Of a stretch of 64,000 bases of DNA, positions 32,710 through 55,785 are shown one piece after another; position 1 is the first letter of the stretch; each line of letters begins with the position of its first letter. This stretch comes from an uncultured delta proteobacterium (lineage in GTDB: Bacteria; Desulfobacterota; Syntrophia; Syntrophales; UBA2185): contig CAVOID010000003.1 in NCBI GenBank assembly GCA_963695875.1, positions 160,001-224,000 on the forward strand, in the 5' to 3' direction. A model generated the notes under the pieces. It saw only the letters and a list, made by a program, of their open reading frames with translations, did not search any database and was not told the origin of the DNA. Position numbers and translations under genes: made by a program.

Positions 32710-33883
32710 ATGAAGGAAGTTTTTATTGTAAGCGCTGTAAGGACACCGATCGGCAGACAGAATGGATATCTCCGAAACTGGACTGCTCCCGAACTCCTGG
32801 GTACCGTGCTGGATGAAGCCGTCCGCAGAATTGATCTCGATCCTGCAATTGTGGATGATGTCATTACGGGTACCGTGTACCAGATCGGTGAGCAGGGTTT
32901 TACCCTGGCACGCATGGGGGTATTAGCCTCAAAATTCCCGCTAACGGTACCGGGGGTATCAGTGAACCGTCAGTGCGGGAGCAGTCTCACCGCCATTCAA
33001 CTCGCCCACGGCATGGTCGCTTCGGGCACGATGGATGTGGTGATCGCGAGCGGATGCGAACTGCTGACGAAGTACGGGATGTTTTCAGATTTGAACGGCA
33101 CCCTGCATACAGGTAAGCCCATGGGGAATCCTTTCGGTAAATTTTACACGAGCAAGTACGGCATACCGGATCAGATCAAAGCGGCACAGATGATTGCAGA
33201 CAAGTGGAAAATTACACGCGACGAATGTCATGAGTTTGCCATAGCAAGCCACAGAAAGGCCCACGCGGCAACCGTCAACGGATACTTTCAAGAATGAAAT
33301 CCTGCCAATTAGGGGCGTCGATAAAGACGGCAAAGAAATCGTCAGGGATACCGATGAGCCTATCAGGCCCGAGACATCCCATGAAACGCTTTCCGCCCTC
33401 AAGGTTTTGCCGAATACCAAATGGATAACGGCCGGCATATCGAGCACCATCACAGACGGCGCATCTGTTGTGGTTCTCATGAGCGAAGAAAAAGTTAAGG
33501 AACTCAGGCTGAATCCGATGGCCCGGGTTGTCGCGAATGCCGTCGTCGGTTCCGATCCGGAGATCATGCTCACAGGGCCCATTTATGTAACGCCCAAAGT
33601 ACTGAAGAAAGCCGGCCTTTCCATGAATGATATCGATATCTTTGAAATCAACGAAGCCTTCGCACCGATACCGCTTGCCTGGGCCAAGGAACTGAAGGCG
33701 GATCAGAGTAAACTGAATGTGAACGGGGGCGCCCTTGCTCTCGGCCATCCTGTAGGCAATTCCGGCTGTCGCCTGACCGTTACGGCAGTCAATGAGCTCA
33801 TGCGCCGAAATGCCAAGTACGCGCTTATTTCACTCTGCACAGGCGGGGGAATGTCTCCGGCAACGATTCTTGAAAGAGCCTGA
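32710..33883 (+). CDS. Thiolase (frameshift near 33290)
   Basis: NRQCGSS, EINEAF, GHPVG, CTGGG. Confidence 0.92.
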
Positions 33884-37989: not shown

Positions 37990-39448
37990 CTGAAACTTAC
38001 AATCTTTAACAGGCTGATCATCAGTTCTCTTTTGATAATTCTTCTGGTTGGTATCAGTGGTGTATATACCATCATGAACCTGAATGATCTTAATCAGCTT
38101 ATCGAGTCCATAATCAAGAATGATTCACGTATAATAAAGCTGACCGAAGAGGCTATGGATGATCTATATAGCCTGACAGCAGCGGAAGACAAGTATCTTA
38201 TATCCAGGGATACTGACTATTACCAGCAGTTCAAGAATACAAGAAGCGACTTCATTAAAAGAGTTGATGAGTTGGAAAAGATAGCGGATACCGGGGTCAA
38301 GATTGGTTTATTGGCGGACATCAAAAAATTCCAGGGTCTCTACGATGTGTTGATTGATGAACGGGAGTCGTTGACAGCTGACAAAAAGTTACAGGAAAAA
38401 AATAGCCAGACCTATGTGATAGACAGGGAGCTGATCACCCGTGAAATTGACCAGAAACTGCGAAATCTTGTTAGAGTTTCAACTGAGGATAGGAATACAA
38501 AATTACAGCGATCAAAGGACATGTCGACACAAATTGCAAATATTATCACCATATCGGAATTTCTTGCAGTCATTCTTGTCATTATTATAACTTTTATAAA
38601 TACGCGGAAGATCAATCTACCCATAAAGCTATTGAGCGAACGGGCAAATGAGGTGGCCGGCGGCAAATTTGGTGATCCACTAAAGATTTCTTCTCCGCCG
38701 GAGATCAAGGAATTGGCGGATACTTTCAACATGATGTGTGAACGGCTCAAGGAACTTGGACCAGATGAAAATTGATTATATCAGTCATCTGTCTCATGAA
38801 TTACGAACTCCTTTAACGGTGATCAAAGAAGCGTCAAGTATGCTTCAGGAAGGTGTTTTCTCAAAGGCCCCTGAAAAACAGGAAGATTTGTTCGTATTGA
38901 TCAAAGCAGAGTGTGAACGGTTAATATTATCTGTTAACCGGATACTTGACTTTTCGCGAATGGAAGCGGGGAAAATGTTTTTTTCCTTTCAAAAAGCGAG
39001 CCTTCGTCCTATTATAGAAAAAAATATTTTGAAGTTGTCGCCTCTTACTCAGAAAAAGAAAATGGATATTACCCTTGAAATTCCAGAGGACATTCCTTCT
39101 CTGCGAATGGACAGGGAAAGGATTGAAGAAGTCTTTGAAAATTTGTTAAGCAATGCTTTGAAGTTTACTCTGGAAGGGGGAAAGATCACTGTTTCTGTCA
39201 AGAATAACAGTGAGAATAACAACGTAGAAATATCTGTATCGGACAATGGTCGCGGCATTCCCGAAGACGGATTGATGCAGGTTTTTGATAAATTCAAGCG
39301 TGTCGATGACAAAAGAGGAGCCATAAGGGGAACCGGCATGGGACTCGCGATCGTAAGACATATCATAAATGCACATGGAGGGCATATATGGGTAAGAAGC
39401 AAAGTGGGCGAAGGAAGCACCTTTACTTTTTCTTTGCCTGCATTATAG
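37990..39448 (+). CDS. HAMP sensor histidine kinase (GlrK/QseE-like); frameshift near 38760
   Basis: 2 TMs, HAMP, SHELRTPL, NLLSNALKF, DNGRG, GTGMGL. Probable CTG start after AAGGAG. Confidence 0.9.
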
Positions 39449-39892
39449 TAATATCGATTCTAATTTGCGGTTGCACTCACTTTTATCAGGCAGCTTTGAC
39501 CAAGCCTGATTTCAAAGAGGCGAATGATTTGATGAAACGGGGAAACTACAAAGCATCTCTGGGCAAGTACGAGCAAATAATTGTACAGATACCCTGAGGA
39601 AGGCGACAGGGTCCTTTTCGAGATGGGCGTAATTTATGCGTTTCCAAGGAATCAGCAGAAAGATTATCAGAAATCTTTGGAATGCTTTCAGAAAATCATA
39701 AAGGATTACCCGGAGAGCAAGTACAGACAAGGCAGCAATGTAATGATTTTTCTTATTAATGAGGTAACAAGGCAAAGAAAACAGATTGATAAGCTCGAAC
39801 GGCAGGTGGAGGAGTTTGAAAAGAAAATAGAACAGATGAAAGAAGTCGATATGAATTTAAAAGAAAAGAAAAAATCAGTTCCTGAGAGATAA
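39388..39892 (+). CDS. TPR/coiled-coil lipoprotein (QseG/YfhG-like position); frameshift near 39575
   Basis: Lipobox ICG-C, TPR-like helices, C-terminal coiled coil ending KEVDMNL; lies between kinase and regulator. Confidence 0.7.
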
Positions 39893-41263
39893 TGGGGTCA
39901 GTGATGGACAGACTATTGATCGTTGATGACGATTTGAATGTTTTAAAAGTGCTCAAGATGAGGCTCGAGTCAGAGGGATATCAGATTGAAACCGCATCAG
40001 AAATAGAAACAGCAAAAGACTTGGTGGCTAAGAATGAATATGAACTTGCCGTGCTTGATCTGAAGTTTTCCGGTGGCAGCGGTATAGATCTGATGAAGAG
40101 TATCCGTGAAGTCGATCCTGATCTTCCGGTCATTATCCTGACGGCATACGGGACCATTGAAAGTGCAGTCGAAGCAATGAAAGAGGGCGCATATATTTAT
40201 CTGACGAAGCCCTTTAACAATCGCGAACTTCTTTTGCAGATCAGGAATGGCATTGAAAAATCAAAACTTTCAAGGGAGGTAAAGAAACTAAGGAGTATTG
40301 TAAGGCAAAATATTAATACTCAGAATATCATTGGTCAGAGTGAAGCGATGAAGAAGGTCCTTGATTTGACGTTTCTTGCAGCGGAGTCCAACTCGAATGT
40401 GTTCATCAGTGGCGAGAGCGGAACAGGAAAAGGGATCATCGCAAGGGCTTTACATCAACTGAGTGACAGGAAGGACAAGCCTTTCGTTTCACTCAACTGT
40501 GCAGCAATTCCTGCGACCCTGCTTGAAAGCGAACTTTTTGGTTTTGAAAAAGGTGCCTTCACAGGGGCTACGGCGAATAAAAAGGGTCTTTTTGTACAGG
40601 CCGATGGCGGGATAATCTTCCTCGATGAAATATCCGAGATCCCTCTTGCCATGCAGGGAAAACTCCTCAAGGCCCTTGAAGATAGAGAATTTTATCCACT
40701 GGGGGCACAGAAGACCGTCAAAGTTGATATACGGATTATATCAGCCTCCAACAAGGATATTGAGATAGAAGTTGAACAAGGAAATTTCCGCAGTGACCTC
40801 TTTTACCGTATACATGTAATTCCTATCAGGATGCCGCCTCTAAGGGATCGAAAAGAAGATATCCCTCTTCTGGTAGAACACTTTTTAGAAAAGTATGCCG
40901 TTAAGATGAATAAAAGTATCAAGAGTATCGCACCGCAAGCCCTTCAGAGGATCATGCTTTATTCCTGGCCCGGCAATGTTCGGGAATTGGAGAACATCAT
41001 TGAATGCGCCGCTGTAATGGTAAGGGATGATGTGATCACGGAAGATATGATAGTCCTTACCACCCAGAAGATGGATGAAAGCGCCTTCCGGTCATTCAAA
41101 GAATCCAAACAGGATTTTGAGCGAAGCTACCTCATAGAATTGATGAAGATCAGCAGAGGCAATGTCAGCCAGGCTGCCAAAATAGCAGGTAAGTACCGTG
41201 CTGATCTTATATGCTTTACTGGAGAAATACAACCTTAGTCCATTGGAGTTTCGACAGGACTGA
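39892..41263 (+). CDS. sigma54-dependent response regulator (GlrR/QseF-like); late frameshift near 41210
   Basis: REC domain, GESGTGK, ESELFG, GAFTGA, FLDEI, WPGNVREL, HTH FERSYL...GNVSQAAKIAG. Confidence 0.92.
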
Positions 41264-41435
41264 AGGAAAAATCCTCCATGTAACGACTGCAACAATTTAA
41301 ATATATTCGCTTGTTTTGAATTTTTTTGATTGTAGGATAATCCATACAATTTTCTGTTCCACACCGGCCCATTTTCAGGGCAAAAATAATAATAATCCAT
41401 TTAATAACAATAAGTTAGAGGCCATAAGCCCTTTC

Positions 41436-41451
41436 TGGTATGCCTTTTGCT
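41436..41451 (+). promoter_or_regulatory. sigma54 -24/-12 promoter
   Basis: TGGTATGCCTTTTGCT (GG-N10-GC). IHF-like TAACAATAAGTTA near 41405; inverted repeat ATTGTA-N10-TACAAT at 41329-41350. Confidence 0.75.
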
Positions 41452-41538
41452 ACATAAAGAATACGCTGATTCTGAAACCCAAATTAAAAAGTAACCTTTT
41501 ATTTGAAATGGATTTGCTCAGATTAAAGGAGCAGTAAG

Positions 41539-41721
41539 ATGGTTTACATAATCACTAGTATAATCATTTATTTAATCCTGGTTTTATTCTTCTGGTCTCT
41601 ATGTGCCATTAAAAATAGAAGTTCCCTCGAAACAAGTGAAAGTGTGTTAAAAAGCGAAGAAACTGAAATTTCATTTGATGAGGTTTTGGCAAGAACTTGC
41701 TCTTCCGCTGATGGAGTGTAG
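41539..41721 (+). CDS. Small single-TM hypothetical protein
   Basis: AAGGAG RBS; hydrophobic N-terminal 24 aa and acidic tail; downstream of the sigma54 promoter. Confidence 0.6.
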   Translation: MVYIITSIIIYLILVLFFWSLCAIKNRSSLETSESVLKSEETEISFDEVLARTCSSADGV

Positions 41722-41891
41722 GAAGAGCCCTTCAGTCCCTTTTCTTTCTGATTTTTTCTTATGAGAAATCAATTCGCCATATAAATAAACCTGCCATTCT
41801 GTTTATCAAAAAACTAAAATATAAATATTCCAGATAAATGCATAAAGCAGCCGTCGCCCATTACCCCTGGAGTCGTACAACCGTTTTCCCA

Positions 41892-41976
41892 TTGACACCC
41901 CACCCCTTTTTCTTTATGCTTCCCCGCGACCGAATTCCCATGCAGGATTGACATCTCTGCCAATGATGCATAATTT
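41892..41976 (+). promoter_or_regulatory. Two tandem sigma70-like promoters upstream of the 1802-aa gene
   Basis: TTGACA-17-TATGCT (41892-41920) and TTGACA-17-TAATTT (41948-41976). Confidence 0.55.
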
Positions 41977-42035
41977 TCTTAAGACAGAGACTTAGACTGA
42001 TATGGGAGAAATGTGAAGAGAGTTTATTCTTTGAT

Positions 42036-45000
42036 ATGCGGTACACGATAGAAACAAAAGACGAAGATTTGCGGGCGAAGTGCATAGAAGAACTGGCACG
42101 CAAAAGAGGATTAGATGAGATAGAGGCGCTTGCAATCGACGATCGCCTGCTTACACTCATAAAGATCATCTCCACAGGATTAGGAGAAGATGTAAACCTG
42201 AATATCGTGCCCGGTGACAGGTGGAAATACAATGCAGAGACTAACGAAATAATATTTCCCGTCGAATTGCTCTTGACCTCTTCCCCGGAAGAAATTATCG
42301 GATTTTCCGCTCATGAAGCTGGCCACAGGCAGATATCCCGCCATAATTTGAGAAAAGCGGCGTTTAAACGCTTCTTCTCCAAAGAATATTTGCGTCTTCT
42401 CTTGAATGCCTTTGAAGACAGCCGTGTAGATAACTGGCTGATTAGTTTCTACAAGGGGATAAAACACTACCTCGACATAACCTATGATGATTTGCTTCCC
42501 CGGAATTTAAACACATCAACGTATGTAAATCACCTGCGGGGCGAAATAGCCGAAAGAGCGAACACGACCTGTCATCCCTTTCTCTTGTATCCCAATTTAG
42601 AATACCTGCTGGGCATGCGGTATTACTGGAGGTATGGTCGTCTGCCATCCCAGGTAATGAATCCTGAAGTGAACGTCGCATTGAAGCGGACGCATGGGGA
42701 TTTTGATGAGATTTTCAATCATTATCCTGCCGGGCGCGTATCGGAACTGGAAAGAATGCAGTTTGCTGAAGAAGCCGCGATCCTTGTCAGGGACAAAATT
42801 CTTCCCGAGTATGAAAATTTAGTCAGGATGACAATCGAAAAATTAGTTGATGAAATAAAAAATAATCAGATCCAGATTAAACAAAAGAAGTGCGCCCAGG
42901 AAGATTTAAGCCCCAGTGAGTTGGAGGAAGAGGCCAGAAAGCTCTTGGAACTGAACGCAAAGGAACTGGCGAATAGGTTCTCCCCGAAGACAGAAAAACA
43001 GATTACAAGGAAGCTTGATAATTACAGGAAGGGCGCTTCTGAAGAAAAAGAGACACTTGTAGAAGGGGGAGAATCTCAGGAGGAAAGAAAATTAGAGTCC
43101 TTGCCTGCAGAAACACTTCGGGACCTCATCAAAAAGCAGCGGATCATTAACCGGGAGCAAGACGCGAAGATAAGCGAATATGAGAGGGTCTATAAGCTCA
43201 TCTCTAATTTAGTCCAGGCATTAAGCGGGGTCCTTGAGAATCACTTCTCGAAAAATAAAAGGCCTGCATTTAAAGGCTATTTCCCCTCGGGTCAGAAACC
43301 GGATCTAAAAAGGGCCATGGAGCTTTCCAGAAAATTGAGCGAGGGTATTCCCGTTCAGGAAAAGGATTTAAAGGTATTTTTGAAGAGGAGGCTTCCCACA
43401 CAGAGGGATCACAAGATAGTCCTGGCTCTGGATGAATCCGCCTCTATGGAAGAACCCAAGAGAACATCAGCTTTAGCAGGGCTTTTAGTCTTTATGGAGG
43501 CGCTGGATCATATCGGCATCGATTATGCGGTAATCGGATTTTCCGATAGCCCTGTCATGCATAAAGACTTTGGCAGAAAGCTGACTCCTCCTGACAGAAG
43601 ATTGTTATTTGAAGAAGTGTCGATGTACATACCTGGAGGTTCAACCGCTGATGCGGATACCCTTCAGTTAGCGACGAATATATTGAAAGATCAACCGGAG
43701 GATTCATCACGATGGATCATTATGGTGACTGATGGAGAGGGAAACGTGAATACAACAGGAAAGACATTTTTTGAGCTTCAGAAAGAAGCATTGGATCAAA
43801 AGATAGAGGTACTGGGAGTGGGTTTAGGCGAAGAAGTAACCGAGGTTATTAAACGTTACAAAAGCGGCATACAGATAGACGACGTGGAAAAACTGCCCTC
43901 TGTCGTTTCCGATATATTGGAGGAAAAACTGGTTACTCAAGATGTATTATGGGAAAATTTCTTAACTCCACAGCATGGGGGAAAGAGTGCTGAAGCGATG
44001 ACATCACCATCTCTCCCCCAGGATTTGTCCGAACTCCTGGCAAGCATCTACCTCCATCAAAAACAGCATATCCCAACCTTCAATGTGAGACACTTGAAGA
44101 GAGCTTCAGAGCTGTTGGGTTTCTTATTGAGCAGGGGTTATCCGACGAAAGAGGGATTCGGAAGGAGTCTGAAATATGCCTTTATAGACACCCAGGAGCA
44201 ACCGCAAAGGGTAAGAAATCTTCTTCTGGGAGAACTTACGGATATACAGAGGATATTATCTGACTTTACTCCTCAGGATGTGCCTCAAGACTTGCTACGC
44301 GCATCTTCTCACGCAGAGGTTCCCGTGGCCTCAATCCCTCATGACCTGGCACCATTGCTGGATATTATAATGAAGAACAACTCACATCCTCACATCGAGC
44401 AAGCCCTCTCGTTATTGAAGGAACTAATCAGCTCCTCTGATCTTGCATTTGTGTGTATCCCCGGATTGGAGGCCTGTTTCCGGGTCATTCAGGATGAATT
44501 GATAAAAGAGATAACCATAGAGGAATTGGAGAAAAAATTAGAGGATAAAAGCTGGGCTGTCCGCCAGCCCGCGGCCTTAGCCCTGGGTCGGGTTTACCTG
44601 GCACTGATCAAACAGGGGAAAGACGCGGAATTGAGTACTTTGGAAAAAGGATTGAATGATGAAGATCCGACTGTCTGCCGGGCCGCGGCCCAGGCCTTAA
44701 GCCGGATATGGTATCATGACTATCGCAAGGGAAAAATAACCGTAGCGGAACTGGAGCATAGACTGGAAGATACAAACTGGGCAATCCGTCAAACTGCGGT
44801 AAGAACCTTGGGTAAGATCTATCCGGCGCTTGTTAAACAGGGGAATGATATAGACATAAGCAAACTGGAAGAAGGGTTGTGGAATAAAAACTGGTTTGTC
44901 CGCCAGGCCGAGTCTGAAGCCCTGGGCCAAATCTATCCTGCACTCATCAAACAGGGAATAGGGGTGGATTTGAGCAGGCTGGAAGATAAATTAAAGGACA

Positions 45001-47444
45001 AAAACATACTTGTCCGTCAAACTGCGGCACTAGCTCTGGGTCAGGCCTATCCCCCCCTTATCAAACGGGGAAAAGATGTAAGCTTAAACGTACTGAAAGA
45101 AAGATTGGATGATGATGACTGGTCTGTCCGTCAGGCTACATCACAGTCCCTGGGACGGATCTGGTTTCACAGCTATTACCAGGGGAAGATGGACTTAAAA
45201 GATATAGAAGAAAAACTGGATGACATAAGCTGGTCTGTCCGCCAGGCCGCATGCCAGACATTGGGTCAGATATACCCTGCGCTTATCAAGCAGGGGAAAA
45301 ATGTAAACTTAAAAAAATTGGAAGAAAGGCTATGGGATGCGGATGTGGACAGGTCCGTATGCCAGGCCGCGGCTCAGGCCCTGGGCCGGATTTGGCCGCA
45401 CAGCTATAACCGGAAGAAGATAACCTTTAAGGCATTGGAAGAACGATTAAAGGATGACAACTGGTTTGTCCACCAGGCCGCAGCCTTAGCGTTAGTAAAG
45501 ATACACCATACCCTTGTCCAACAGGGGAATGATGCGGACTTAAGCAAACTGGAAAGAAGATTGAAGGATAAGATCTGGTCTGTCCGTCAGGCCGCAGCAC
45601 GGGCTTCCATAAAAACCTTTTCCGATCTCATATCGAACAATGAAAAAGAATTCAGCAAGGTCTTGGCCTCATTCAATGAGATGCTGGGCGAGCCAATGGA
45701 AAGCATCCTCACAGGCACTCATGCCAACCAGGTTCAAGTCGGCGAGAAGTCGTTAACGGTGGGCAATCTACTTTTTGACAGAACAAAAAGCATCGATGAT
45801 ATACCTGCCTGCGTGATGACGGCATCCGGCTATCACATTATAGAAACGTTATGTATCGGCTACCTGTTGAAACACTCTATCTTGCTCCTGGGTCCCACAT
45901 CAACGGGAAAGAGTTTCCTGATTAAATGGCTGGCGAAGGTATTGGGCTACGAGCACCTCTCGTATTCCATCAACCCCTATACCTCCAAGTTTGAAATAAT
46001 CGGCGGCATTAAACCGGATAGCGAAGGAAGATTCGTCTGGCAGGATGGGATTCTTTTGAATGCGGCAAGAGAGGGTCTATGGCTGGCCCTGGAAGAGATA
46101 AACCTGGCATCTTCTGAAGTTGTTGAGATATTGAATGATTATTTGATTACGGGAAAGATATCCTATTCAGCGAATGGGGAGCAGAAGGAATTGTATCCCC
46201 ATCAGGACTTCAGGCTCTTTGCCACCGGGAATCCTGAAAGTTACAGCCAGCGGCAGAAACTCTCGGAGGTTTTTTTATCAAGGTTTAAAATCCTCTATCA
46301 AAAAGAGCTTTCCGAGGAGGAGTTGTCCCAGATACTGAGTTCCTTATTCGAAATCTCTTCTTCTTTAGCCCTTCCGATTGCGAGATTCCATACGACCTTG
46401 CAGAATCAGGCGGATAGCCGCATCATCGGCAAAGCGGAAAAAGACCCGTATACTTTTACCCTCAGGGATATCATCAGGCTGGGTAAGAGACTGGAGCCGA
46501 TTCTCGCAAAGGGACCAGTGGATGGGGCATACCTTATGAGATTTTTCCTCGAGTTCTTCAGCGTCTATATCGGCAGGCTGAGGGATGAATATGAAAGAGA
46601 AGCGGTGATCAGCTTATTGGATACTCATTTTGGTTTCAGAGCTAAGGGACTGGATCTGGAAGCAGTGCTCATGTCTTCGTCCGAAGACCTGAAAGTCTTA
46701 CTTGAAACATTACCGTCCTCACAGGGGGGAGAATTTGTTCCAAGGGATGACGCGGACATTATACCTACACCGACACAAAGGAGAACCCTCTATTTGATCC
46801 TGAAAGCCCTCATACACAATGAGCCGGTTCTTGTGGTGGGAAATCCTGCCTCCGGAAAAACTACACTTATTAGATATTTGGCAAGGCAAAAGAAGACCAA
46901 CCTCTATTATGTCAACCTCTCCTCCGATACAGGACTGGAAGAACTCCTTGGCGGTTATACACAAGACAAGAGCGGAAGATGGCACTACAGAAAAGGGCTT
47001 CTGTTTTCGGCAATGGAGGAGGGGAGTTGGCTCTTGATCGATGAAGCGAATCTGTCTCCCTTATCGGAATACTTGAACAGCCTCCTCGACTTTGGCTATG
47101 TAATTGATGGAGAAGAAAATATCTGCTATTCCCATCCTAACTTCAGGGTATTCCTGGCCATAAATCCGCCCTCTGTGCATCAATCAAGAAATCTGCTTTC
47201 CCCCGCCTTGAGGTCACGGTTCACCGAGGTCTGGGTTGAAGAGTTGACTAATTTGGGAGAACTCGCCGGTTTAATTGATACCTGGGGTAACTCTCACGGT
47301 GTAGTATCTGGAACCCATGAGCGGAAGAAAGGCAAAAAACGCAAGGGTCGTGAGGAAAAAACTCCTGAGGATGAAAAGACAGTAAAAAAAGCCGAACAAA
47401 AGGAGTTTGCATCCTTCAAGCGATATACCCACTTTTCAACGTGA
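42036..47444 (+). CDS. 1802-aa HExxH - VWA(MIDAS) - HEAT repeat - tandem midasin/MoxR-like AAA+ protein
   Basis: HEAGH (42312); DESAS...T...TDG MIDAS (43431-43740); about 10 HEAT-like repeats (44526-45630); Walker A GPTSTGKS (45891) and GNPASGKT (46839); Walker B LALEE and LLIDE. Confidence 0.9.
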   Translation: MRYTIETKDEDLRAKCIEELARKRGLDEIEALAIDDRLLTLIKIISTGLGEDVNLNIVPGDRWKYNAETNEIIFPVELLLTSSPEEIIGFSAHEAGHRQISRHNLRKAAFKRFFSKEYLRLLLNAFEDSRVDNWLISFYKGIKHYLDITYDDLLPRNLNTSTYVNHLRGEIAERANTTCHPFLLYPNLEYLLGMRYYWRYGRLPSQVMNPEVNVALKRTHGDFDEIFNHYPAGRVSELERMQFAEEAAILVRDKILPEYENLVRMTIEKLVDEIKNNQIQIKQKKCAQEDLSPSELEEEARKLLELNAKELANRFSPKTEKQITRKLDNYRKGASEEKETLVEGGESQEERKLESLPAETLRDLIKKQRIINREQDAKISEYERVYKLISNLVQALSGVLENHFSKNKRPAFKGYFPSGQKPDLKRAMELSRKLSEGIPVQEKDLKVFLKRRLPTQRDHKIVLALDESASMEEPKRTSALAGLLVFMEALDHIGIDYAVIGFSDSPVMHKDFGRKLTPPDRRLLFEEVSMYIPGGSTADADTLQLATNILKDQPEDSSRWIIMVTDGEGNVNTTGKTFFELQKEALDQKIEVLGVGLGEEVTEVIKRYKSGIQIDDVEKLPSVVSDILEEKLVTQDVLWENFLTPQHGGKSAEAMTSPSLPQDLSELLASIYLHQKQHIPTFNVRHLKRASELLGFLLSRGYPTKEGFGRSLKYAFIDTQEQPQRVRNLLLGELTDIQRILSDFTPQDVPQDLLRASSHAEVPVASIPHDLAPLLDIIMKNNSHPHIEQALSLLKELISSSDLAFVCIPGLEACFRVIQDELIKEITIEELEKKLEDKSWAVRQPAALALGRVYLALIKQGKDAELSTLEKGLNDEDPTVCRAAAQALSRIWYHDYRKGKITVAELEHRLEDTNWAIRQTAVRTLGKIYPALVKQGNDIDISKLEEGLWNKNWFVRQAESEALGQIYPALIKQGIGVDLSRLEDKLKDKNILVRQTAALALGQAYPPLIKRGKDVSLNVLKERLDDDDWSVRQATSQSLGRIWFHSYYQGKMDLKDIEEKLDDISWSVRQAACQTLGQIYPALIKQGKNVNLKKLEERLWDADVDRSVCQAAAQALGRIWPHSYNRKKITFKALEERLKDDNWFVHQAAALALVKIHHTLVQQGNDADLSKLERRLKDKIWSVRQAAARASIKTFSDLISNNEKEFSKVLASFNEMLGEPMESILTGTHANQVQVGEKSLTVGNLLFDRTKSIDDIPACVMTASGYHIIETLCIGYLLKHSILLLGPTSTGKSFLIKWLAKVLGYEHLSYSINPYTSKFEIIGGIKPDSEGRFVWQDGILLNAAREGLWLALEEINLASSEVVEILNDYLITGKISYSANGEQKELYPHQDFRLFATGNPESYSQRQKLSEVFLSRFKILYQKELSEEELSQILSSLFEISSSLALPIARFHTTLQNQADSRIIGKAEKDPYTFTLRDIIRLGKRLEPILAKGPVDGAYLMRFFLEFFSVYIGRLRDEYEREAVISLLDTHFGFRAKGLDLEAVLMSSSEDLKVLLETLPSSQGGEFVPRDDADIIPTPTQRRTLYLILKALIHNEPVLVVGNPASGKTTLIRYLARQKKTNLYYVNLSSDTGLEELLGGYTQDKSGRWHYRKGLLFSAMEEGSWLLIDEANLSPLSEYLNSLLDFGYVIDGEENICYSHPNFRVFLAINPPSVHQSRNLLSPALRSRFTEVWVEELTNLGELAGLIDTWGNSHGVVSGTHERKKGKKRKGREEKTPEDEKTVKKAEQKEFASFKRYTHFST
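44526..45630 (+). repeat. About 10 tandem HEAT-like coding repeats (37-39 aa)
   Basis: Consensus LEexLxDxxWxVRQaAaxALGxI(YPALIKQG / WxHxYxxGK); GTCCGCCAGGCCG-like DNA recurs. Confidence 0.9.
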
Positions 47445-47496
47445 TGGGAAGAGCACTTTAAAAATCTTTCTTTAACAGCACTAGCATGAAAATGGC

Positions 47497-47612
47497 TGTC
47501 ACTCTTCGATAGGCTCAGGGTGACCATGCGTTTTCACGCCGACGTGGTGTCACCTCTTACTTTGGACAAGAATTAATTTTATAACCCCCTTTGGAAAAGG
47601 GGGCTGGGGGAT
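47497..47612. repeat. Cluster of REP-like elements
   Basis: TGTCACTCTTCGATAGGCTCAGGGTGAC and TTTCACGCCGACGTGGTGTCA (compare 24105-24125), plus the hairpin CCCCCTTT-GGA-AAAGGGGG. Confidence 0.6.
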
Positions 47613-47626
47613 TTTGTGGCAATAGT

Positions 47627-48403
47627 ATGAGAACAATGCTCCCAGCAGGTGAAATAGCACGGCGCCTCCATGACATCGTGTTCCAGAAGGGAGAAGACCT
47701 TACGGTCGAAGAAGTACATGTCGGCCTCGGTTACGTTGGGGTAAGACTTGACAACGACGGCATGGGCCTTGCAGCCCTGTTACTTCACGAGATATCGCCG
47801 GGCTGTTCTGTTATTCCCGAAGCCGGAAAGTTAGCCGGAGAAAAGGCAACCTCTCTTCTCAATAAACTTATAGAAGGACAGAATCCCCTGGATAAAGCCC
47901 TCGGCCTTGCTACTGCTAATGCCGCCCTTCATCCCACATCTATTCAAGACGAAAGAGACTCCCTCTCTATCATGAGGCTGACGCCTGACGACCATGTGGC
48001 AATGGTCGGACTCTTCACGCCGATGGTTCCGAAGATCGAGGCGACAGGGGTAAAACTTTCTGTCATTGAGCGAAACCCCGCGCGGATGGCAGTTCTTGAT
48101 AAGAAAGAGACTGGCAGGATATTAAATGAGTGCACCGTAGCCATCATTACAGCAACCACACTCCTGAATGATACCCTGGAAGAGATTCTCAATGGCCTGG
48201 GGAATCCCCGGCATGTCGCCATCCTCGGCCCATCCACCCCTCTCTGCCCTGATATCTTTCAGGGAACGCAGGTCAACCATCTGGGGGGGTCTGTAGTCCG
48301 GGATGCTTATAAAGTCATGCGGATCATCTCCGAAGGCGGCGGCACCCCGGCCATGCGGCCCTACTTGCAATTCGTGAACATCCTCCTTCCCAAAACTTCT
48401 TGA
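47627..48403 (+). CDS. DUF364 / Rossmann-like domain protein
   Basis: GLGYVGV, ALGLATANA, VAMVGLF, ITATTLLNDT, LGPSTP. Confidence 0.75.
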   Translation: MRTMLPAGEIARRLHDIVFQKGEDLTVEEVHVGLGYVGVRLDNDGMGLAALLLHEISPGCSVIPEAGKLAGEKATSLLNKLIEGQNPLDKALGLATANAALHPTSIQDERDSLSIMRLTPDDHVAMVGLFTPMVPKIEATGVKLSVIERNPARMAVLDKKETGRILNECTVAIITATTLLNDTLEEILNGLGNPRHVAILGPSTPLCPDIFQGTQVNHLGGSVVRDAYKVMRIISEGGGTPAMRPYLQFVNILLPKTS

Positions 48404-48435
48404 CATCAAATAGGAAATAAATCGCGGGCAAACGG

Positions 48436-49104
48436 ATGAGGGTCATAAACAAATACAGAAAAATCATATTCCATACAACTATACTGACCATCATCCTTGG
48501 TACGTTATTGGCGCCTGTCACCGCTTCGCCGGAATCCGGATGGAAGCTCGCATTGCAGAAGGACGGTATTGAAGTCTCCACAAGAGGTGTTCCCGGTTCG
48601 GATTTAGATGAGTTCATGGGTACGACGGTAATCGAGGCATCGGTCAATGTCATCGAGGCGGTAATTGATGATGTGCCGGCAGCACCTCAATGGATGGCGG
48701 ATTGCAGAGAAGCGAGGACTATCCGCAAAATAGACGAAAACGTAAGCGTGGTGTTAAACGTAACGAAGACGCCCTGGCCGGTGTATGACAGAGAAACTCT
48801 TTTGATATCGACGAAGCAAAAGGATGCGAAGGCAGAGACGGTGATATTTGAATTTCATTCCGTAAATGATCCCGCTGTCCCTGTAGGAAAGAAGAATGTC
48901 AGGATTCCGGCGATTGACGGTCGATGGGTTTTAACCGCTGTCGACGAAGGGCACACAGAAGTCACTTATACCGTAAAGTCCAACCCAGGTGGCTCTATAC
49001 CCAAATTCATTGCCAAACAGAGGAGCAGGGATATTCCCTACAAAACCTTGTTGGGTTTAAAGGAAATGGTCAAGAAAGATAAATATAAAGAGACAACTAA
49101 ATAA
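48436..49104 (+). CDS. Secreted START/SRPBCC lipid-binding domain protein
   Basis: Signal peptide; WKLALQKDGIEV, PWPVYDR, NPGGSIP. Confidence 0.8.
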   Translation: MRVINKYRKIIFHTTILTIILGTLLAPVTASPESGWKLALQKDGIEVSTRGVPGSDLDEFMGTTVIEASVNVIEAVIDDVPAAPQWMADCREARTIRKIDENVSVVLNVTKTPWPVYDRETLLISTKQKDAKAETVIFEFHSVNDPAVPVGKKNVRIPAIDGRWVLTAVDEGHTEVTYTVKSNPGGSIPKFIAKQRSRDIPYKTLLGLKEMVKKDKYKETTK

Positions 49105-49401
49105 CAAATACCAAGCTTCAAAGCCGCTCATCGGAAAATTCATTGAATTCCTTTTGCCATGTCCGGCGAGGAGATGAGGAATGAACCTAACTGCCCTTGT
49201 TTCAATTCCAACGCAGATAACAGAAGGCTCAAGCGTTGCCAATGCAAAGGGTTACATCCTGTCGCTCGCTCTGCATAATTGTCTCATCTAAGCAAAGTTG
49301 TTTCTTGGCAAGTGAACGTTACACGCGCTTTTCTTATCCCATCTTTCCTGAAACAAATAGTCGATACCTGGCGTGCCAATATTCAAGCTGGCCTGCCCCC
49401 C

Positions 49402-50817
49402 TCAATGATGGACGACCTTATTGTCCGCCTCTATGACCCAGCCGCCGCCTATCGCCTTGTAAAGGTTCACGAGAGACTGGAAGAGAACTCCTGTCGTTTG
49501 AGCCCGGGCAAGTTCCGCATCGAAAAGGCTGCGCTCCGCATCAAGCACCTCGATGTAGCTTGTGTAGCCGTTTTCAAATCTCAGACGCGCGAAGCGAGCG
49601 TAGGTGAGCAGAGATTCGACCTGCCGCGTCTGGATCTCAAGCCCTTCCCGTGACCTCCTCTGGTCAATAAGGGCGTCTTCGACTTCACGAAAGGCCGTCT
49701 GGATGGATTGCTGATACTGAAGGAGGGCCTGCCGCTGTATCGCCTCAGCCGCTTCGACCTGTCCGCCAATGGCGCCTGCTGTGAAGATCGGCACATTCAG
49801 AGGAACGTTCCAGCTCCAGACTCTGGATGGTCCCTGGAAGAGTGTTGAGAGGTCCGTGCTCGCGAATCCAAACATGCCGGTCAGAGAAATCGTCGGAAAA
49901 TAGAGTGACCGTGCCACACCGATTCTCGCATTGGCCGCTATGAGGACCTGCTCGGCCTGTCGTATATCCGGACGCTTGGCAAGCAAGTCTGACGGCAGGC
50001 CTGCCGGCACGGCGGGAAGTACAAGCTCATCAATCTTCTTCCCTCGTGGAATAGAACCCGGATTTCGTCCGATAAGCACACTCAGTGCATTTTCTTGTTG
50101 GCTAATGGCCTTTTCGAGAAACGGGATGATTGCGAGGGCCTGCTCATACAGTGATTTGACCTGGCTCAGTTCGAGTTCGGAGATGACACCACCCCGGAAA
50201 CGCAACTGGAAAAGGTCATAAGACTCCTTGCGGCTCTGTGCGGTGCGTCTGGCAATCTCAAGTTGTTTGTCAAGGTCGCGAAGATTCACATAGGCGCTTG
50301 CCACAGACGCTACAAGAGTAAGGATAACACCCTTTCGTCCCTCTTCCTGACTCAGTAGATCGGCACGGGACGCCTCCGTTGCCCTCCTCAGCTTGCCCCA
50401 CAGGTCGATTTCCCAGCTCGCATTCAGGAAGGCGGAATAGTTGTCCGCGGGGTTCTGAGTGGCGGATGTGAGGGCAGTTGCGCCGTTTTCTGTGGCCCTG
50501 CTTCTGCCCCCAATTGCTCCTGCGCCGGCCTGGGGAAAAAGGGAGGCGCGGGTTATACCATATCGGCCTACAAACTCTTCAACGCGTGCCGTGGCGATCA
50601 TGACATCCTTATTCTCTTTCAATGCCGTTTGAATCAGTTCATTCAGGACGGGATCATTGAATTGCTCCCACCATGCGGTATTGCCGATCTCTCTTGCTTC
50701 TTTTTCTTCAAAGCGCCAGGATGCAGGCGTCTCGACAGTCGGTCTCCGGTAGTCCGGGCCCATCATGCAGCCGAAAAGGATAATTGCCAGTAGCGGGCAG
50801 ACGACAATGTTACGCAT
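49402..50817 (-). CDS. RND efflux outer-membrane lipoprotein (OprM/NodT family)
   Basis: Lipobox [31 protein letters not shown]. Confidence 0.92.
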
Positions 50818-53800
50818 TGTTATTTTCCTTGCTCTCCCGGCGATCATCTTTTTTGCTCCTGCGGGAGAGAGTCATGACGACATAGAATGTCACGGGAATG
50901 AGAAAGACGGCGATCAGCGATGCAGTCAATGTCCCGCCCATGACGGCGGTTCCCATGATCTGCCGTGCAGTCGCGCCTGCGCCCGTGGATACGGCGAGGG
51001 GCAAGACACCGAACAGGAAAGCAAAGGATGTCATAAGGATCGGCCTGAGTCTCAGCCGCGCTCCCTCGAGGGCGGCGTCGGTAATGGACATCCCCTCTTC
51101 ATATTTCGCTTTCGCGAACTCAACTATGAGGATGGCATTCTTGGCAGTTAGACCGATAAGCACGATGAGGGCGATCTGGGCATAGATATTGTTCACCTGG
51201 CTGCGAAGCCATATCGCTATGAAGGCGCCGAAAACGGCTATGGGCGTGCTCAGAAGAACGCTGACAGGCAGCGACCAGCTTTCATACAGCGCCGCAAGGA
51301 TTAGAAAGACGCACAAGAGCGAAAACCCGAAGATGACGTACGTCGGTATTCCTTCCTGGGCCTTCTTTTCCTGGAAGCTCATGCCCATGTAATCGAGACC
51401 CATTTCGCTCGGCATTGTCTGGGCAAAGACTTCTTCGAGGGCCTTCATCGCCTGGCCGGAGCTATAACCGGGTTTGGCCGTGGCGTTGATCTGTGCCGAG
51501 CGATAAAGGTTGTACCGCATCGTAAATTCGGGACCGGAGCGCGATTCAATCGTCGTTACCGCCGAGAGCGGCACAGGATCCCCTCTTTCGTTTTGAACGA
51601 AGAACTGCCCTACCTTTTCGGCCTTGTTGCGGTATTCTCCCTCCGCCTGGACATAGACCTGCCATTGACGGCCGAATCGGTTGAAGTAATTTACGAAGTA
51701 TCCCCCCATGAAGGTCTGAAGCGTCTGGTACACCTGTCTCAAATCGATGCCCTGCTTGAGCACTTTGTCCCTGTCCACATTGATGAAGATCTGAGGAACA
51801 CCGGGCAGGAAGGTCGTCGTCACACGCTCCAGTTCCGGCCTCTGGCGCGCAGCCTCGAGAAATTTGTTGACGTTCTCCGCGAGATAGGGAATATCCTTGC
51901 CGGCCCTGTCTTCAAGAACAAGAGTTACACCGCCTGCGGTGCCGATCCCCGGGATGGCCGGGGGTGAAAAGGCAAAGGCAATCCCTTCCGGCAATTTGCC
52001 AAGTTCCCGATTCAGATGGGCCATGATGGCCTCGTACTGCTCCTCAGGCTTTTCCCGATCTTTCCACTCTTTCAGGTTTACAAAGAAGAAACCGCTGTAG
52101 GTGTTCTGCACAATGCTCAGCAGGCTCACGCCGACGACAGTCGTGTAGTATTTCACTCCGGGCGTGTTTGCAAGGATCTCCTCGATCTTTCTGCAAGCCG
52201 CGTCGGTACGCTGTAGCGAGGCTGCATCGGGCAGGGCCAGATTAATGAACATATACCCCTGATCTTCTTCCGGCAGGAAGCCTGCGGGAATCCCCTTGCC
52301 GAATGCCGGCGGAAACGACCGTGATCCCGGCAAGGAAGAGAAGGCTGAGGACGCTCTTGCGGATGAGCGTGCCCGAGAAGGAGACATAGCCGTTGGTGGC
52401 ACGGCCAAAGGCGCGGTTGAAAAGGCTGAAGAATTTTCCGAGCGGTCCCTGCGAATCCGACTTCGGCTTGAGCAAGAGTGCGCACAGCGCCGGGCTTAAG
52501 GACAGCGCATTAAATGTCGAGATGAGAACCGAGATGGCGATTGTCGCGGCAAACTGCTGGTAGAGCCGGCCCGTAATCCCCGGTATAAAGATTGTGGGGA
52601 TGAAAACCGCAGACAGGACCAGCGCAATGGCTATCATCGGCCCTGATACTTCTTCCATTGTCTTGAGTGCCGCCTCTTTCGGAGCCATGCCCTTCCTCCA
52701 TGTGCCGTTCCACCGCCTCCACCACGATGATGGCGTTATCCACAACCAGTCCTATGGCGAGAACCAGGCCGAAGATGGACAGGGTATTGATTGAGAAGCC
52801 GAGATAAGGGGAAGAAGGCAAACGTGCCGATGAGGGAGACCGGAACTGCAAGTGTTGGAATGAGGGTCGGCCTCCAGCCCTGAAGAAAGATGAAGACGAC
52901 GATGATGACGAGGATTATGGCGATGAAGAGCGTCTTGACAATCTCATGTATTCCTTCGGTGATTGCCCTTGTCGTGTCGAGACCGAGCGCATAGTCGAGA
53001 TCGGCGGGAAAGCGCTCCTTGGCCTCTTCCATTATCTTTCTGGCGCCTTGGGCAGCCGCTATCGCATTCGTCCCGGGCAACTGGTAGACGGCGATATTGG
53101 CGGCCGGTTTGCCGTTCAGCCTGCCCCTGATGTTATAAACCTGCGTCCCCAGATCAATGCGGGCCACGTCTTTCAGGCGGACAATCGATCCGTCAGGGTT
53201 GGCCCGGATAACGATCTCGCCGAATTCCTGCTCGGAGATGAGGCGGCCCTGGGCGCGAACCGCATAAGTAAATTCCTGCCCCGGAGGGACAGGCTCAGCG
53301 CCGATCTGCCCGGCAGGATTGACCGCATTCTGCTTCTGGACGGCATCGATGATCTGAGGGACGGTGATGCCGAGTTTTGCCAGGGTATCGGGCTTGACCC
53401 AGATGCGTATGGCAGTACTGGCCTGCCCCGAAGATCGAAACCATGGCGACGCCGGGGACGCGCAGCAACTGGTCGCTGAGATTGATATAGGCATAATTTG
53501 AAAGAAAAGTTGCATCATGTGTTGCATTCGGTGAATACAGGGAGAAGATCATCAACGGCGCAAACCTGGATTTCTGGACCGTGACTCCGTAATTGCGCAC
53601 GTCTAGCGGAAGCATCGGCTCGGCCTGATTCTGCCGTATCTGAGTAAGAACCTGGTCTGTATTCGGATTGGTCGCGACGTCGAAAGATACGATGATCCTC
53701 ATGATGCCGATGTTGGAGTTCAGGGAAAACATGTAATTCATGTTGTCCACGCCGCTCATCTGCTGCTCGATGGGGGTGGCAACCGACTGCTCCACCGTCA

Positions 53801-53963
53801 ACGCATCGGCGCCCATATACATGGTGTTGATCTGGATCTCCGGCGGGACGATTTCAGGAAATTGTGAGACGGGCAATTGCACGAGCGCGACGGTCCCGAT
53901 AATGACAAACATGATGGATATGACCATGGCAACGATGGGACGGTTGATAAAGAACTTTGCCAC
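50810..53963 (-). CDS. RND efflux permease (AcrB/HAE1 family), several frameshifts
   Basis: [41 protein letters not shown] over 5 ORFs. Confidence 0.92.
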
Positions 53964-53969
53964 GCCGGT

Positions 53970-55184
53970 CTACCTCTTCTCCGCCTCGGGTTGAGCCGGC
54001 GGTGTTGCCTCGGTCTTCTGCGCTTGACCGGTCGCTGGCTGAGGTTCGGATCCATAGGGGATCGGATTTACGATCATGCCCTGCCTGACCTTCTGGACAC
54101 CTTCTGCCACGACCCGCTCTCCCGGTCTTCAGCCCTTCATCAATCACCCAGAGGTCATCAACACGTTCAGCCACTTTTACCGGCCGTATATCCACTTTGT
54201 TATTCGCGACCCACCACTGCAACCTGGATAGCTGCCCTGAAGCTCCGTGACCGCCCGCTGGGGTACCAGCAGCGCTTTTTTGATCTTGATCCTGGCGCGA
54301 ATCTTGGCAAATTGTCCGGGCCGAAGAATATTTCCGGGATTCTTGAAGAGGGCGGCCACTCTGATGGTTCCTGTCTTCACGTCCACCTGGCGGTCGGCAA
54401 AGGCAAACTTCCCCTTGTAAGGATAGACACTTCCATCGGAGAGAATCATCTCCAGCGGGTTGTCCTTGAAACCGTTCGGCCTTCTGCCCGTCGCTATGAG
54501 ATATTCCTGCTCACCATACGGAGATGTAGACCTTGATAGGGTCGACTGTCGAGACCGTTGTCAGTTCCTCTATCGACTCCGGGACCGACCAGGTTCCCGA
54601 TCTGCGTCTTGGCGATGCCGGCGATGCCGTCAATGGGAGAAACGATCTTTGTGAAGTCAAGGTCCAGCCTGGCTTTCTCAACCACTGCCTCTGCAGAAAT
54701 CACCGCAGCATGGGCTGCCTGTTCCTGCCCTGTCGGCATCATCCAGGTCTTTTTTGCTGACGGCATTTTGTTCCGCGAGCGGTATGATCCTGGTCAGATT
54801 TGCCTTGGCCGTCGACCAGCGCGCCTTCTGCTCGCCCAGTTGCCCTTTAGCCTGATCGAGGGCAGCCTGAAAAGTGCGCGGATCAATCTCGAAGAGGATC
54901 TGTCCCTTCCTGACGAAATCGCCTTCATGGTAGTTCTGCTTGATGAGGTAGCCCTGAACCTGGGCACGGATCACGGCATTTACCATGCCGTCAGTAGTGC
55001 CGATCCATTCAGAATACATGGGGACATTTTTCTGGGCGACGTCCGCGACTTGCACGGTGGGTGGGGGATTGTTGCCTTTTTGTTCTCTATTGCAGCCCGA
55101 TATAAGGAAAGAGACCGAGCTAACGGCTACTATTACAAGAACACAAGCATGGCGTAATTTTGTTTTTTTATCTTTCATTGACAT
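53970..55184 (-). CDS. RND membrane-fusion protein (AcrA family), frameshifted
   Basis: Lipobox ISG-C, IRAQVQGYL, GQILFEIDP, IVSPIDG, TGTI...LRPGQF, LLVPQRAV. Confidence 0.9.
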
Positions 55185-55270
55185 AAAAAATTCCTCAATG
55201 CCTCTCTCTCGGACTGGAAAGATGTAATTTCAGGATTGAACTTTGTGCAAGTTCCCATAGGCATATTATC

Positions 55271-55385
55271 GAATCCGGCAGCGAGCGCATGCCCCTTGGC
55301 TTGCTGCGGGGTAAGCGAGCGAATGGGGAACATTATTATTCCTTGTGGATCGAAGATTCTTCGCAGTTTACTGCGGAGAGCTTCA
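55271..55385. repeat. REP/MITE-like dispersed repeat, copy 2
   Basis: Colinear with 19332-19443; hairpins CCCC...GGGG and CGCAG-TTTA-CTGCG. Confidence 0.75.
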
Positions 55386-55629
55386 ATTGATCAGAATGAT
55401 TGTTAAGAGCCGCCTTTTTAAATGTGGGGAGTATATTTGAACGTGTTCTTATATGTCAAGACAATTTGGCTGCAGACCGCAGTGGGTAACGATGTCAGGT
55501 TTAGTAATCACGGTATTATCCTGTCACGCATCGCAGTTCTAAAAGTATTTGTCCGATGATTGAATTCATTGACTTTGGATTGAAAGATGTTAAAATTTGA
55601 CAGTGTATTTTGTCTTTACGTAAAATGCG

Positions 55630-55785
55630 ACATAATGATTGTGGCGCGCCAATGGACCCAGCAGGTTATTTGGTCGATCCACGAGCCCATCTCACTCAAG
55701 GCGGGCATCAATCCTGAGGTGATCAAGGCGCTTGCCGATGGCCGTCGTCCTGTTGGCATGGATGAGGACGAAGATATCCTTTTGG
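55630..55785 (+). pseudogene. Fragment of a carboxymuconolactone decarboxylase/AhpD-like gene
   Basis: IMIVARQWTQQVIWSIHEPISLKAGINPEVIKALADGRRPVGMDEDE resembles the middle of CMD-family proteins; the flanks look non-coding. Confidence 0.55.

Follow-up and report, generated by a model that had tools for sequence, protein, structure and literature searches.

The stretch of DNA analysed here (the window) comprises 64,000 nucleotides of contig CAVOID010000003.1, from assembly GCA_963695875.1 of an uncultured delta proteobacterium of the order Syntrophales. At 42036..47444 on its forward strand lies an open reading frame (ORF) for a protein of 1802 amino acids (aa; P0001), in which a zincin-like domain is followed by a VWA domain with its MIDAS, a helical linker, a HEAT array, AAA module a, a midasin-type lid, AAA module b and a basic/acidic tail. 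In this protein family adaptor, arm and motor are one 200-kDa chain, or two coupled genes. All coordinates below are window positions, and features lie on the forward (+) strand unless another strand is given.

A preliminary description of this DNA, made from the sequence alone, had called the ORF uninterrupted in a window where many genes are broken. Both points agree with the ORF list and the translation of the window i.e. the 1802 codons run without interruption, an AcrB-type gene lies in four ORFs and a thiolase is in two halves. The four ORFs of the AcrB/RND pump gene (50810-53963, - strand) correspond to profile positions 1-182, 176-376, 416-542 and 548-1020, the thiolase (32710-33883, +) is split into an N half and a C half, and a histidine kinase (38032-39448) is also present as two overlapping ORFs. 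Because of these breaks in the pump, thiolase and kinase genes, and because the window differs by 1 base from three other sequencing runs at 41737, the frame breaks in the window may be assembly indel errors and not pseudogenes. The large ORF is tiled by Logan contigs from four runs in four studies, with no insertions or deletions listed within it; single contigs of run X1 cover 41671-44912 and 45685-47858, and contig breaks inside the ORF are confined to the HEAT repeats, where they are bridged by other contigs. At least half of the sampled words of the stretch were present in 14 runs (peat, wetland and sediment), and all of the runs holding such words together represent 17 studies; no RNA run was listed as holding the stretch.

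Strong matches to the protein were found in 18 of the 21 other genomes of the window's taxonomic family, and 14 of these 18 hold one colinear, stop-free ORF with 67-89% identity. Of the three remaining family genomes, one retains a trace of 34 residues at the end of a contig and the other two, each 92% complete, gave no match; among 39 genomes from other families of the same order, five gave matches, all of them weak, partial and to AAA or HEAT parts. Within the family the gene is single-copy and its synteny is conserved. Against three relatives, the ratio of non-synonymous to synonymous substitution rates (dN/dS) was 0.08-0.10 overall and 0.02-0.13 in all of the folded domains, and because every domain is constrained in this way the ORF is more than a chance reading frame. 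The gene is real and strongly conserved, and its function is kept under purifying selection.

The motor consists of two AAA modules. Module a (residues 1255-1428; 45798..46319) has its Walker A motif, GPTSTGKS, at 45891-45914 (residue 1286) and its Walker B motif, LALEEINLA, at 46083-46109 (residue 1350), in which an invariant Glu-Glu replaces Asp-Glu. A midasin-type AAA lid follows (AAA_lid_7; residues 1429-1533; 46320..46634), which matches Pfam PF17867 at E 7.9e-14 and 52.3 bits, the cut-off being 22.7, and then module b (residues 1573-1740; 46752..47255), with Walker A GNPASGKT at 46839-46862 (residue 1602) and Walker B LLIDEANLS at 47031-47057 (residue 1666). Pfam AAA_5 matches two stretches (E 5.4e-39, 133.8 bits, best at residues 1282-1417). 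When residues 1221-1802 were compared with the sequences in the PDB, midasin was matched at E 2.5e-114 to 4e-111, in colinear alignments that extend from module a across the lid and reach the Walker A motif of module b, with per-module matches of up to 106 bits; the motor matched other solved structures at 3e-7 (CbbQ), 5e-6 (dynein), 5e-5 (NorQ) and 4e-4 (CobS). Judged by these values, the motor sequence is far nearer to that of midasin than to the sequence of any prokaryotic AAA_5 ATPase with a solved structure. The two modules have diverged from each other, the profile of a scoring 329 bits on a and 60 on b, and the profile of b scoring 66 and 317, respectively. An AlphaFold2 (AF2) model of the tandem, with a predicted local distance difference test score (pLDDT) of 79.9 and a predicted template modelling score of 0.78, superposes as one unit on adjacent ring modules of S. 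pombe Mdn1 (Z 24.6, 433 residues, 4.1 A, 24% identity); against dynein it gave Z 22-26 at 16-17% identity.

N-terminal to the motor lies a VWA domain with a complete MIDAS (residues 445-640; 43368..43955), made up of DESAS at 43431-43445 (residues 466-470), T537 at 43644-43646 and D566 at 43731-43733, a motif that is invariant in 32 full-length homologues. Pfam VWA matches residues 461-605 (E 3.8e-7) and VWA_2 also matches; CobT_C (PF11775) scores 18.2 bits on this domain, below its cut-off of 21. In structure comparisons the VWA model was closest to the MIDAS domains of Rea1 (6qta; Z 23.7, 219 residues, 3.1 A) and MDN1 (8ql1; Z 21.2), other VWA domains reaching Z 16.7 at most, and Foldseek searches with the VWA-containing model placed NorD and MDN1 at the top.

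The N-terminal domain (residues 1-320; 42036..42995) is zincin-like, with HEAGH at 42312-42326 (residues 93-97) and EDSR at 42414-42425. A set of 13 diverse relatives shows no variation at H93, E94, H97, R102, E127, D128 or R130, and in the AF2 model three strands (56-75) are followed by the HExxH helix (84-100) i.e. the comparison with zincins is of a HEAGH motif on a helix after a small sheet, with E127, D128 and R130 further on. Structure searches of the 815-residue model returned VWA matches only, in which the HExxH domain is not represented. A profile of the N-domain found 1102 representative relatives at E ≤0.001 among 1.84 billion proteins. A VWA domain, mostly with CobT_C matches, lies behind the N-domain in 45 of the 52 representatives scanned; of the other seven, six lack any Pfam family and the seventh matches M20 alone. 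HExxH is kept in 142 of 151 relatives and is followed by [ED]DxR in 118 of the 151, and four of the nine relatives without HExxH are fragments that lack the region. Atlas leads for the domain were a CobT cluster (0.95) and phage proteins (0.96), and its dN/dS is 0.10-0.13, compared with 0.04-0.08 for the VWA domain and 0.02-0.08 for the AAA modules. The position of the VWA domain behind the N-domain, the retention of HExxH and the CobT lead therefore place the N-terminal half in a large, unnamed CobT-like adaptor family with a conserved zincin-like site, and the HExxH domain and the VWA domain together form a widespread CobT-like adaptor unit. The CobT N-domain PF06213 is not among the two families listed for residues 1-460 at E ≤0.1, and we found no description of a zincin site in CobT or CobT-like adaptors in the literature searched, to the extent that its text was accessible.

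The remaining segments connect these domains. A charged, partly disordered helical connector (residues 321-444; 42996..43367; pLDDT <50 at 315-357, long helices at 361-406, dN/dS 0.07-0.11) lies between the N-domain and the VWA domain, which is followed by a helical linker (residues 641-815; 43956..44480) that has no Pfam family and forms helices at 664-814 in the model. The second gene of the two-gene forms described below starts at about this linker, the split point being estimated from motif positions. The HEAT array (residues 816-1225; 44481..45710) has ten units of ~38 residues, visible in the DNA as a 114-nt period (repeat families D1 and D2); it matches Pfam HEAT at E 1.7e-40 and HEAT_2 at E 2.2e-36, the HEAT signal spanning residues 817-1190, and its dN/dS is 0.09. 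The Lys/Glu-rich C-terminal tail (residues 1750-1802; 47283..47441) shows little conservation, with pLDDT <50, no consensus in alignment A2 and a dN/dS of 0.31-0.37.

The domain content given in the preliminary description thus stands. Its HExxH motif (HEAGH) is present and conserved, its MIDAS (DESAS, T, VTDG) is complete, invariant and in the model closest to those of Rea1 and MDN1, and its count of about ten HEAT-like repeats agrees with the ten units legible in the translation. Its two AAA+ modules of midasin type (AAA_5) are supported by the PDB E-values, the Pfam lid and a 100/100 split from CbbQ-type modules, and the segment-by-segment comparison that it proposed matched VWA, HEAT, AAA_5 and the midasin lid in Pfam.

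A search for the same architecture and its spread, also proposed there, found the fused form in bacteria and archaea and a split form in archaea and Desulfofervidaceae. The protein search with the 1802-aa protein gave 95 hits. These included 27 clusters of 1553-1839 aa with 62-88% identity, which are named 'MoxR-like ATPase/HEAT repeat protein', 'HEAT repeat domain-containing protein' or, wrongly, 'PDS5' in the databases; five clusters of 1871-1874 aa with 42-46% identity; some 45 clusters of ~1010-1300 aa, mostly HEAT and two AAA modules alone; and a few giants, plus eukaryotic midasins (best E 9.5e-102). A scan of 185,579 species genomes yielded 49 loci, many of them from fen, bog and peat, with record titles that name Syntrophales/Syntrophaceae, Desulfofervidaceae, Methanomicrobia, other 'Euryarchaeota/Halobacteriota/Methanobacteriota' metagenome-assembled genomes (MAGs), Bathyarchaeia, Acidiferrales, Planctomycetia and Omnitrophota. 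In the split forms a gene of 580-868 aa with HExxH and DESGS lies directly upstream of the motor gene; this HExxH-VWA gene overlaps the HEAT-AAA-AAA gene (1150-1275 aa) by 8-23 nt in five loci and is 4 nt apart from it in two more. The same machine is therefore encoded as two overlapping genes in archaea and Desulfofervidaceae, and the adaptor half and the HEAT and motor half are coupled both by gene fusion and by gene overlap. The earlier statement that VWA and AAA partners are normally separate genes in bacteria can be extended accordingly, since archaeal and Desulfofervidaceae members of this very family are two-gene. The domain order had also been called reversed relative to midasin; this is true of the present family (VWA at 445-640 before the motor at 1255-1740) but not of distant relatives, which put HExxH-VWA at the C-terminus like the midasin MIDAS.

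These distant relatives are giants of 2817-3879 aa (P0086, L068:31-8625, L071:4-11643 and L072) from Omnitrophota and unclassified MAGs, in which 4-6 AAA_5 modules are combined with as many as 14 HEAT_2 stretches and with an HExxH-VWA unit that is either central or C-terminal; in L071 (3879 aa), HEGGH is at 3331 and VWA at 3708-3842, i.e. C-terminal like the midasin MIDAS. A separate observation concerns L055, a record labelled as bacterial (Candidatus Acidiferrales), which is almost identical to L043 and L044, labelled as archaeal (Euryarchaeota), in its 1871-aa fused form and in the adjacent genes for a peroxiredoxin, a rhodanese/metallo-beta-lactamase and an ABC transporter; this likeness reflects either a recent transfer or a binning or label error. 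The domains of the family are known and its proteins are in the databases under automatic names. In the literature searched, as far as its text could be consulted, we found no paper on the family or on midasin-like proteins of prokaryotes, the names midasin and Rea1 being used there for eukaryotic proteins only.

We used a tree of 62 AAA modules (174 columns; careful IQ-TREE search) to compare the modules of the fused, split and giant forms with those of known proteins. Modules without a profile match spanning positions <40 to >120 (e.g. the cut first module of P0086 and AAA1 of P0088) were excluded, and the tree was made without the CbbQ loci L112, L114 and L115 and without CobS, RavA, GvpN and dynein. 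The CbbQ-type modules separate at 100/100. The fused archaeal form joins the split archaeal forms (100/98), fused and split forms being interleaved within archaea, and the window's fused form joins the split Desulfofervidaceae forms; fusion or fission therefore occurred on more than one occasion. In the Omnitrophota giant P0086, modules 2 and 4 fall in one clade with module a (94/92), and modules 1, 3 and 5 in one with module b (96/92, starred). P0086 has six AAA_5 stretches, and its cut first module scores as a-type, which gives the order a-b-a-b-a-b; its Walker B motifs alternate between Glu-Glu and Asp-Glu in step with this order. The AAA phylogeny named in the preliminary description as a check thus bears out the separation from CbbQ-type modules, but it leaves the midasin modules unplaced and does not include CobS.

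The presence of three a-b pairs in the single chain of P0086 supports, indirectly, a ring of three chains for the two-module protein. By this analogy a three-chain, six-module ring is plausible, and the hexameric ring of three two-AAA subunits imagined in the preliminary description fits both the P0086 alternation and the ring-neighbour placement in the AF2 model, although the ring itself is something that we infer.

On the downstream side the gene does not stand alone, as had been thought, since a conserved gene of the DUF364/DUF4213 type follows it directly (47627..48403; DUF364 E 1.5e-39, DUF4213 E 1.2e-17). The ORF list starts this gene at TTG 47591; relatives of 255 aa indicate ATG 47627. 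It is directly downstream in all seven relatives fetched and in 14 of the 15 fused bacterial loci with downstream DNA (the exception being L057), overlaps the large gene by 4 nt in seven loci and lies 182 nt downstream of it in the window. MobB is found downstream in 10 Syntrophales loci; in the window it lies at 59477-60001, beyond ~11 kb without counterpart in the relatives. Encoded in this ~11 kb (48404-59476) are, besides the broken RND pump, a START-domain protein, an outer-membrane factor, a radical SAM protein and DUF374; in the relatives MobB comes within ~1-2 kb of DUF364, and the segment looks like a lineage-specific insertion or rearrangement. The genes upstream of the large gene are not conserved among relatives.

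Other neighbours are found in the archaeal loci. The split archaeal loci have HSP20 directly upstream (8 loci), an Fe/Mn superoxide dismutase (7 loci), a 185-aa protein without family downstream (14 loci) and a transglutaminase-like gene on the other strand (14 loci), and the fused archaeal-type loci have an AhpC/TSA peroxiredoxin downstream (4 loci). The 185-aa protein, which has no Pfam family and lies directly downstream of the split form in L039, L040, L045, L047, L048, L050, L053, L054, L060, L061 and L064-L067 (e.g. L040:11918-12475), gave an Atlas lead, as a lead only, to ThuA/LBP_M-like (glutamine-amidotransferase-like) folds (0.93). The archaeal neighbours are suggestive of stress or proteostasis and those in Syntrophales of molybdenum-cofactor genes, and the conserved core is the machine itself.

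The promoters and repetitive extragenic palindromic (REP) elements reported for the locus fared less well than the domains. Sigma-70-like sites in 41000-49300 number 8, compared with 10.5 +/- 3.5 in shuffles, and so are not above chance; the one good match and the best upstream of the gene (41892..41920) is TTGACA-17-TATGCT, which agrees with the consensus at 10 of 12 positions and is no more than a consensus match. The repeat scan placed no repeat family over 47444-47640, and in place of REP elements the 182-nt spacer holds one 8-bp hairpin (CCCCCTTT/AAAGGGGG; 47585..47603) that belongs to no repeat family and whose 31-nt context occurs once in the genome at ≤3 mismatches. Contigs of three of the four runs (X1, X2 and X5) end or diverge at 47584-47617 with different flanks, although the hairpin is unique in the genome, and this spacer site seems variable among strains. 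Further upstream, TGGTATGCCTTTTGCT at 41436-41451 presumably resembles a sigma-54 promoter, as read by eye; it lies just downstream of a sigma-54 activator gene (39892-41238) and upstream of an ORF of ~60 codons with a hydrophobic start (41540-41722). Elsewhere in the genome we noted an N-terminally cut MoxR-like ORF (C9:214592-214879); AAA_3 (MoxR proper) was above the Pfam cut-off in none of the nine genomes of the window's family searched, its own included, and in two matches in G023, which is from another family.

On balance, the gene probably encodes a self-contained AAA+/VWA remodelling and processing machine of the MoxR/CobS class, in which the motor and the MIDAS are midasin-like. MoxR-class AAA+/VWA pairs mature or remodel large complexes, among them Rubisco, nitric oxide reductase, cobaltochelatase and the eukaryotic 60S ribosome, and the trait of this class seen here is an AAA_5 ATPase fused to a VWA domain with an intact MIDAS or, in archaea and Desulfofervidaceae, encoded with it in overlapping genes. 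Coupling between MoxR and vWA proteins is described in two papers (PMC7159879, PMC3495828), and for CobS-CobT a preprint states that the N-domain binds the AAA small domain while a finger of the VWA domain enters the pore (10.64898/2026.10.09.757910). In the machine that we propose, three chains with one a-b pair each would assemble into a six-module ring, and the VWA domain would dock on this ring so that the MIDAS could grip an acidic residue of the client, as in NorQ-NorD, CbbQ-CbbO, CobS-CobT and midasin. ATP turnover would then pull on or twist the client, which the HEAT arm, if the client is large, would hold or space. The zincin-like site might trim the client or the machine itself, and this is the least certain step. 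The task of the client would be cytoplasmic and housekeeping or stress-linked, in strict anaerobes of peat and sediment, rather than mobile defence.

Several observations weigh against this reading. At the N-terminus, residues 1-460 have no real Pfam or PHROG family match and match no Pfam peptidase family, and the zincin call is based on the conserved motif together with a marginal PDB profile match to two minigluzincins, MJ1213 and projannalysin (E 0.008-0.017), which spans the strand and helix bearing HExxH. By sequence the VWA domain is only weakly midasin-like (E 0.0034), CobT (0.0016) and CLCA1 (0.0006) scoring better. One motor module with its lid fits NorQ and CbbQ nearly as well (Z ~20.6, 253 residues, 18% identity), and the fold alone therefore cannot separate these families, although the sequence does; moreover, AF2 may copy the ring-neighbour geometry from training on dynein and Rea1. 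In the module tree, midasin AAA1-6 form six clades in a polytomy with the prokaryotic clades, and their scores against the a and b profiles are ambiguous as to type; the outgroups are three CbbQ-type rows and one long-branched MoxR row, the latter unreliable and on a branch of 2.96. Finally, the neighbours differ by lineage, so the context gives no single function.

A possible, though rather less probable, alternative to such a remodelling and processing machine is a chelatase-like maturation motor without proteolysis, which would insert or mature a metal cofactor in a client enzyme, perhaps a Mo/W pterin enzyme of syntrophs and methanogens, with HExxH as an anchor on the AAA lid or a metal-holding site. 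The CobT-like character of the adaptor half (weak CobT_C matches, the Atlas lead of 0.95 to a CobT cluster and a PDB match to CobT at E 0.0016) would suit such a function, as would the match of the motor to the phage CobS family phrog_249 among the PHROGs (E 4.5e-44), and one report assigns NorQD and CobST, which are known MoxR-class/VWA pairs, to metal insertion (PMC13036017). The next genes in Syntrophales, DUF364/DUF4213 and, in 10 loci, MobB, also point this way, but they are confined to that lineage and the archaeal and Desulfofervidaceae loci lack them, and the one characterised DUF364 enzyme acts on a methylated S-adenosylmethionine and not on a metal (PMC12930334). In addition, no CobN/ChlH-like partner was seen among the ORFs scanned, no genome-wide search having been made, and a mere anchor would not need the near-universal catalytic-type Glu of HExxH.

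The preliminary description had also suggested a conflict or anti-phage system, which in its MoxR-vWA form would use the HEAT arm to sense an invader and the motor and zincin as effector. We consider this very unlikely. PMC7159879 describes as conflict systems those MoxR-vWA systems that have peptidase effectors and superstructure domains of the HEAT or TPR type, and the related forms in bacteria and archaea imply transfer between domains; the Pfam bpMoxR match (35.7 bits) would fit as well, but it is the weaker match, overlapping the AAA_5 stretch at 133.8 bits. PADLOC gave only weak generic P-loop matches (the best being mad8, E 1.5e-10), none of which passes alone as a stretch, and the proposed check for defence islands found no defence genes among the neighbours scanned, which are metabolic, regulatory or stress genes. 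The gene is moreover single-copy and lies in conserved synteny, with strong matches (67-89% identity) in 18 of the 21 genomes of a single family, and its HEAT arm is under purifying selection (dN/dS 0.09). That the ORF is chimeric or mis-assembled, or that the gene is decaying, has practically no probability left, although the frame-broken genes nearby and the 1-nt difference at 41737 might speak for it: the contig tiling from four studies without listed indels and the 18 of 21 related genomes rule out the chimera that the preliminary description wanted checked, and with 14 relatives holding the full colinear ORF without stops and a dN/dS of ~0.09 we reject this candidate altogether.

The midasin-like remodelling machine that we favour may bear on the origin of larger motors. 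Six-module motors are currently derived from the one-module MoxR (PMC3495828). Because methanogen-related archaea have the two-gene form, syntrophic bacteria the fused form and Omnitrophota triple-pair chains, we tentatively raise the idea, which is still doubtful, that this prokaryotic family may be the nearest living prokaryotic relative of midasin in motor and MIDAS, and that its a-b tandem may be the building block of the six-module rings of midasin and dynein, which would have begun as trimers of tandems and later had their three pairs fused. If true, this would provide a small, tractable prokaryotic model of the midasin mechanism and would bear on the origin of both midasin and dynein. 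The family in any case offers a compact system in which to study the coupling of MIDAS adaptors to rings, the formation of rings from tandem modules and the role of HExxH in CobT-like adaptors. Strong selection maintains the family in syntrophic bacteria and in methanogen-related archaea that live in peat, wetland and sediment. As these partners control methane formation there, the client of the family may have a bearing on this physiology.

Midasin (Rea1 in yeast, Mdn1/MDN1) is the eukaryotic AAA+ protein that remodels pre-60S ribosomes by removing assembly factors with ubiquitin-like (UBL) domains, a nuclear process. The window's protein shares with it the AAA_5 modules and midasin-type lid, and a motor and MIDAS that are joined in one chain by a long helical element. 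However, midasin has six AAA modules per chain instead of two, its MIDAS is C-terminal (ring, linker, D/E-rich region, MIDAS) instead of N-terminal to the motor, and a HEAT array stands here where Rea1 has its linker and D/E-rich region; the HExxH domain is extra, the N-domain profile having no match in three fungal midasin fragments. With two modules and not six, a reversed order and an additional zincin-like domain, the 1802-aa protein is not a midasin, and its host is prokaryotic, so its client cannot be the nuclear pre-60S particle.

CobS-CobT, of the aerobic cobaltochelatase, has an AAA_5 ATPase and an adaptor of N-domain, long linker and CobT_C-type VWA domain in common with the protein, and its mechanism (N-domain on the AAA small domain, VWA finger in the pore) likely carries over. 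By Pfam cut-offs the adaptor half is not CobT, as PF06213 does not match and CobT_C stays below its threshold. The protein also differs in the inserted HEAT array and in its motor, where two distinct modules stand in tandem and the sequence resembles midasin far more than CobS, and no CobN-like catalytic subunit was seen nearby among the ORFs scanned. NorQ-NorD and CbbQ-CbbO share the single-module fold (Z ~20.6, 253 residues) and the logic of a VWA domain on a hexameric ring, and the NorD VWA is among the best Foldseek matches; these systems are one-module homohexamers with a separate VWA protein, whereas a two-module tandem is present here, and their sequence similarity is weak (E 3e-7 to 5e-5), with modules 100/100 apart in the tree. 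The uncharacterised giants of Omnitrophota, Elusimicrobiota and unclassified bacteria (P0084-P0087, L068, L071 and L072) differ in having 4-6 modules per chain and HExxH-VWA in the middle or at the C-terminus, with 24-36% identity to the window's protein, but they are made of the same building blocks i.e. a and b modules, HEAT arrays and an HExxH-VWA unit.

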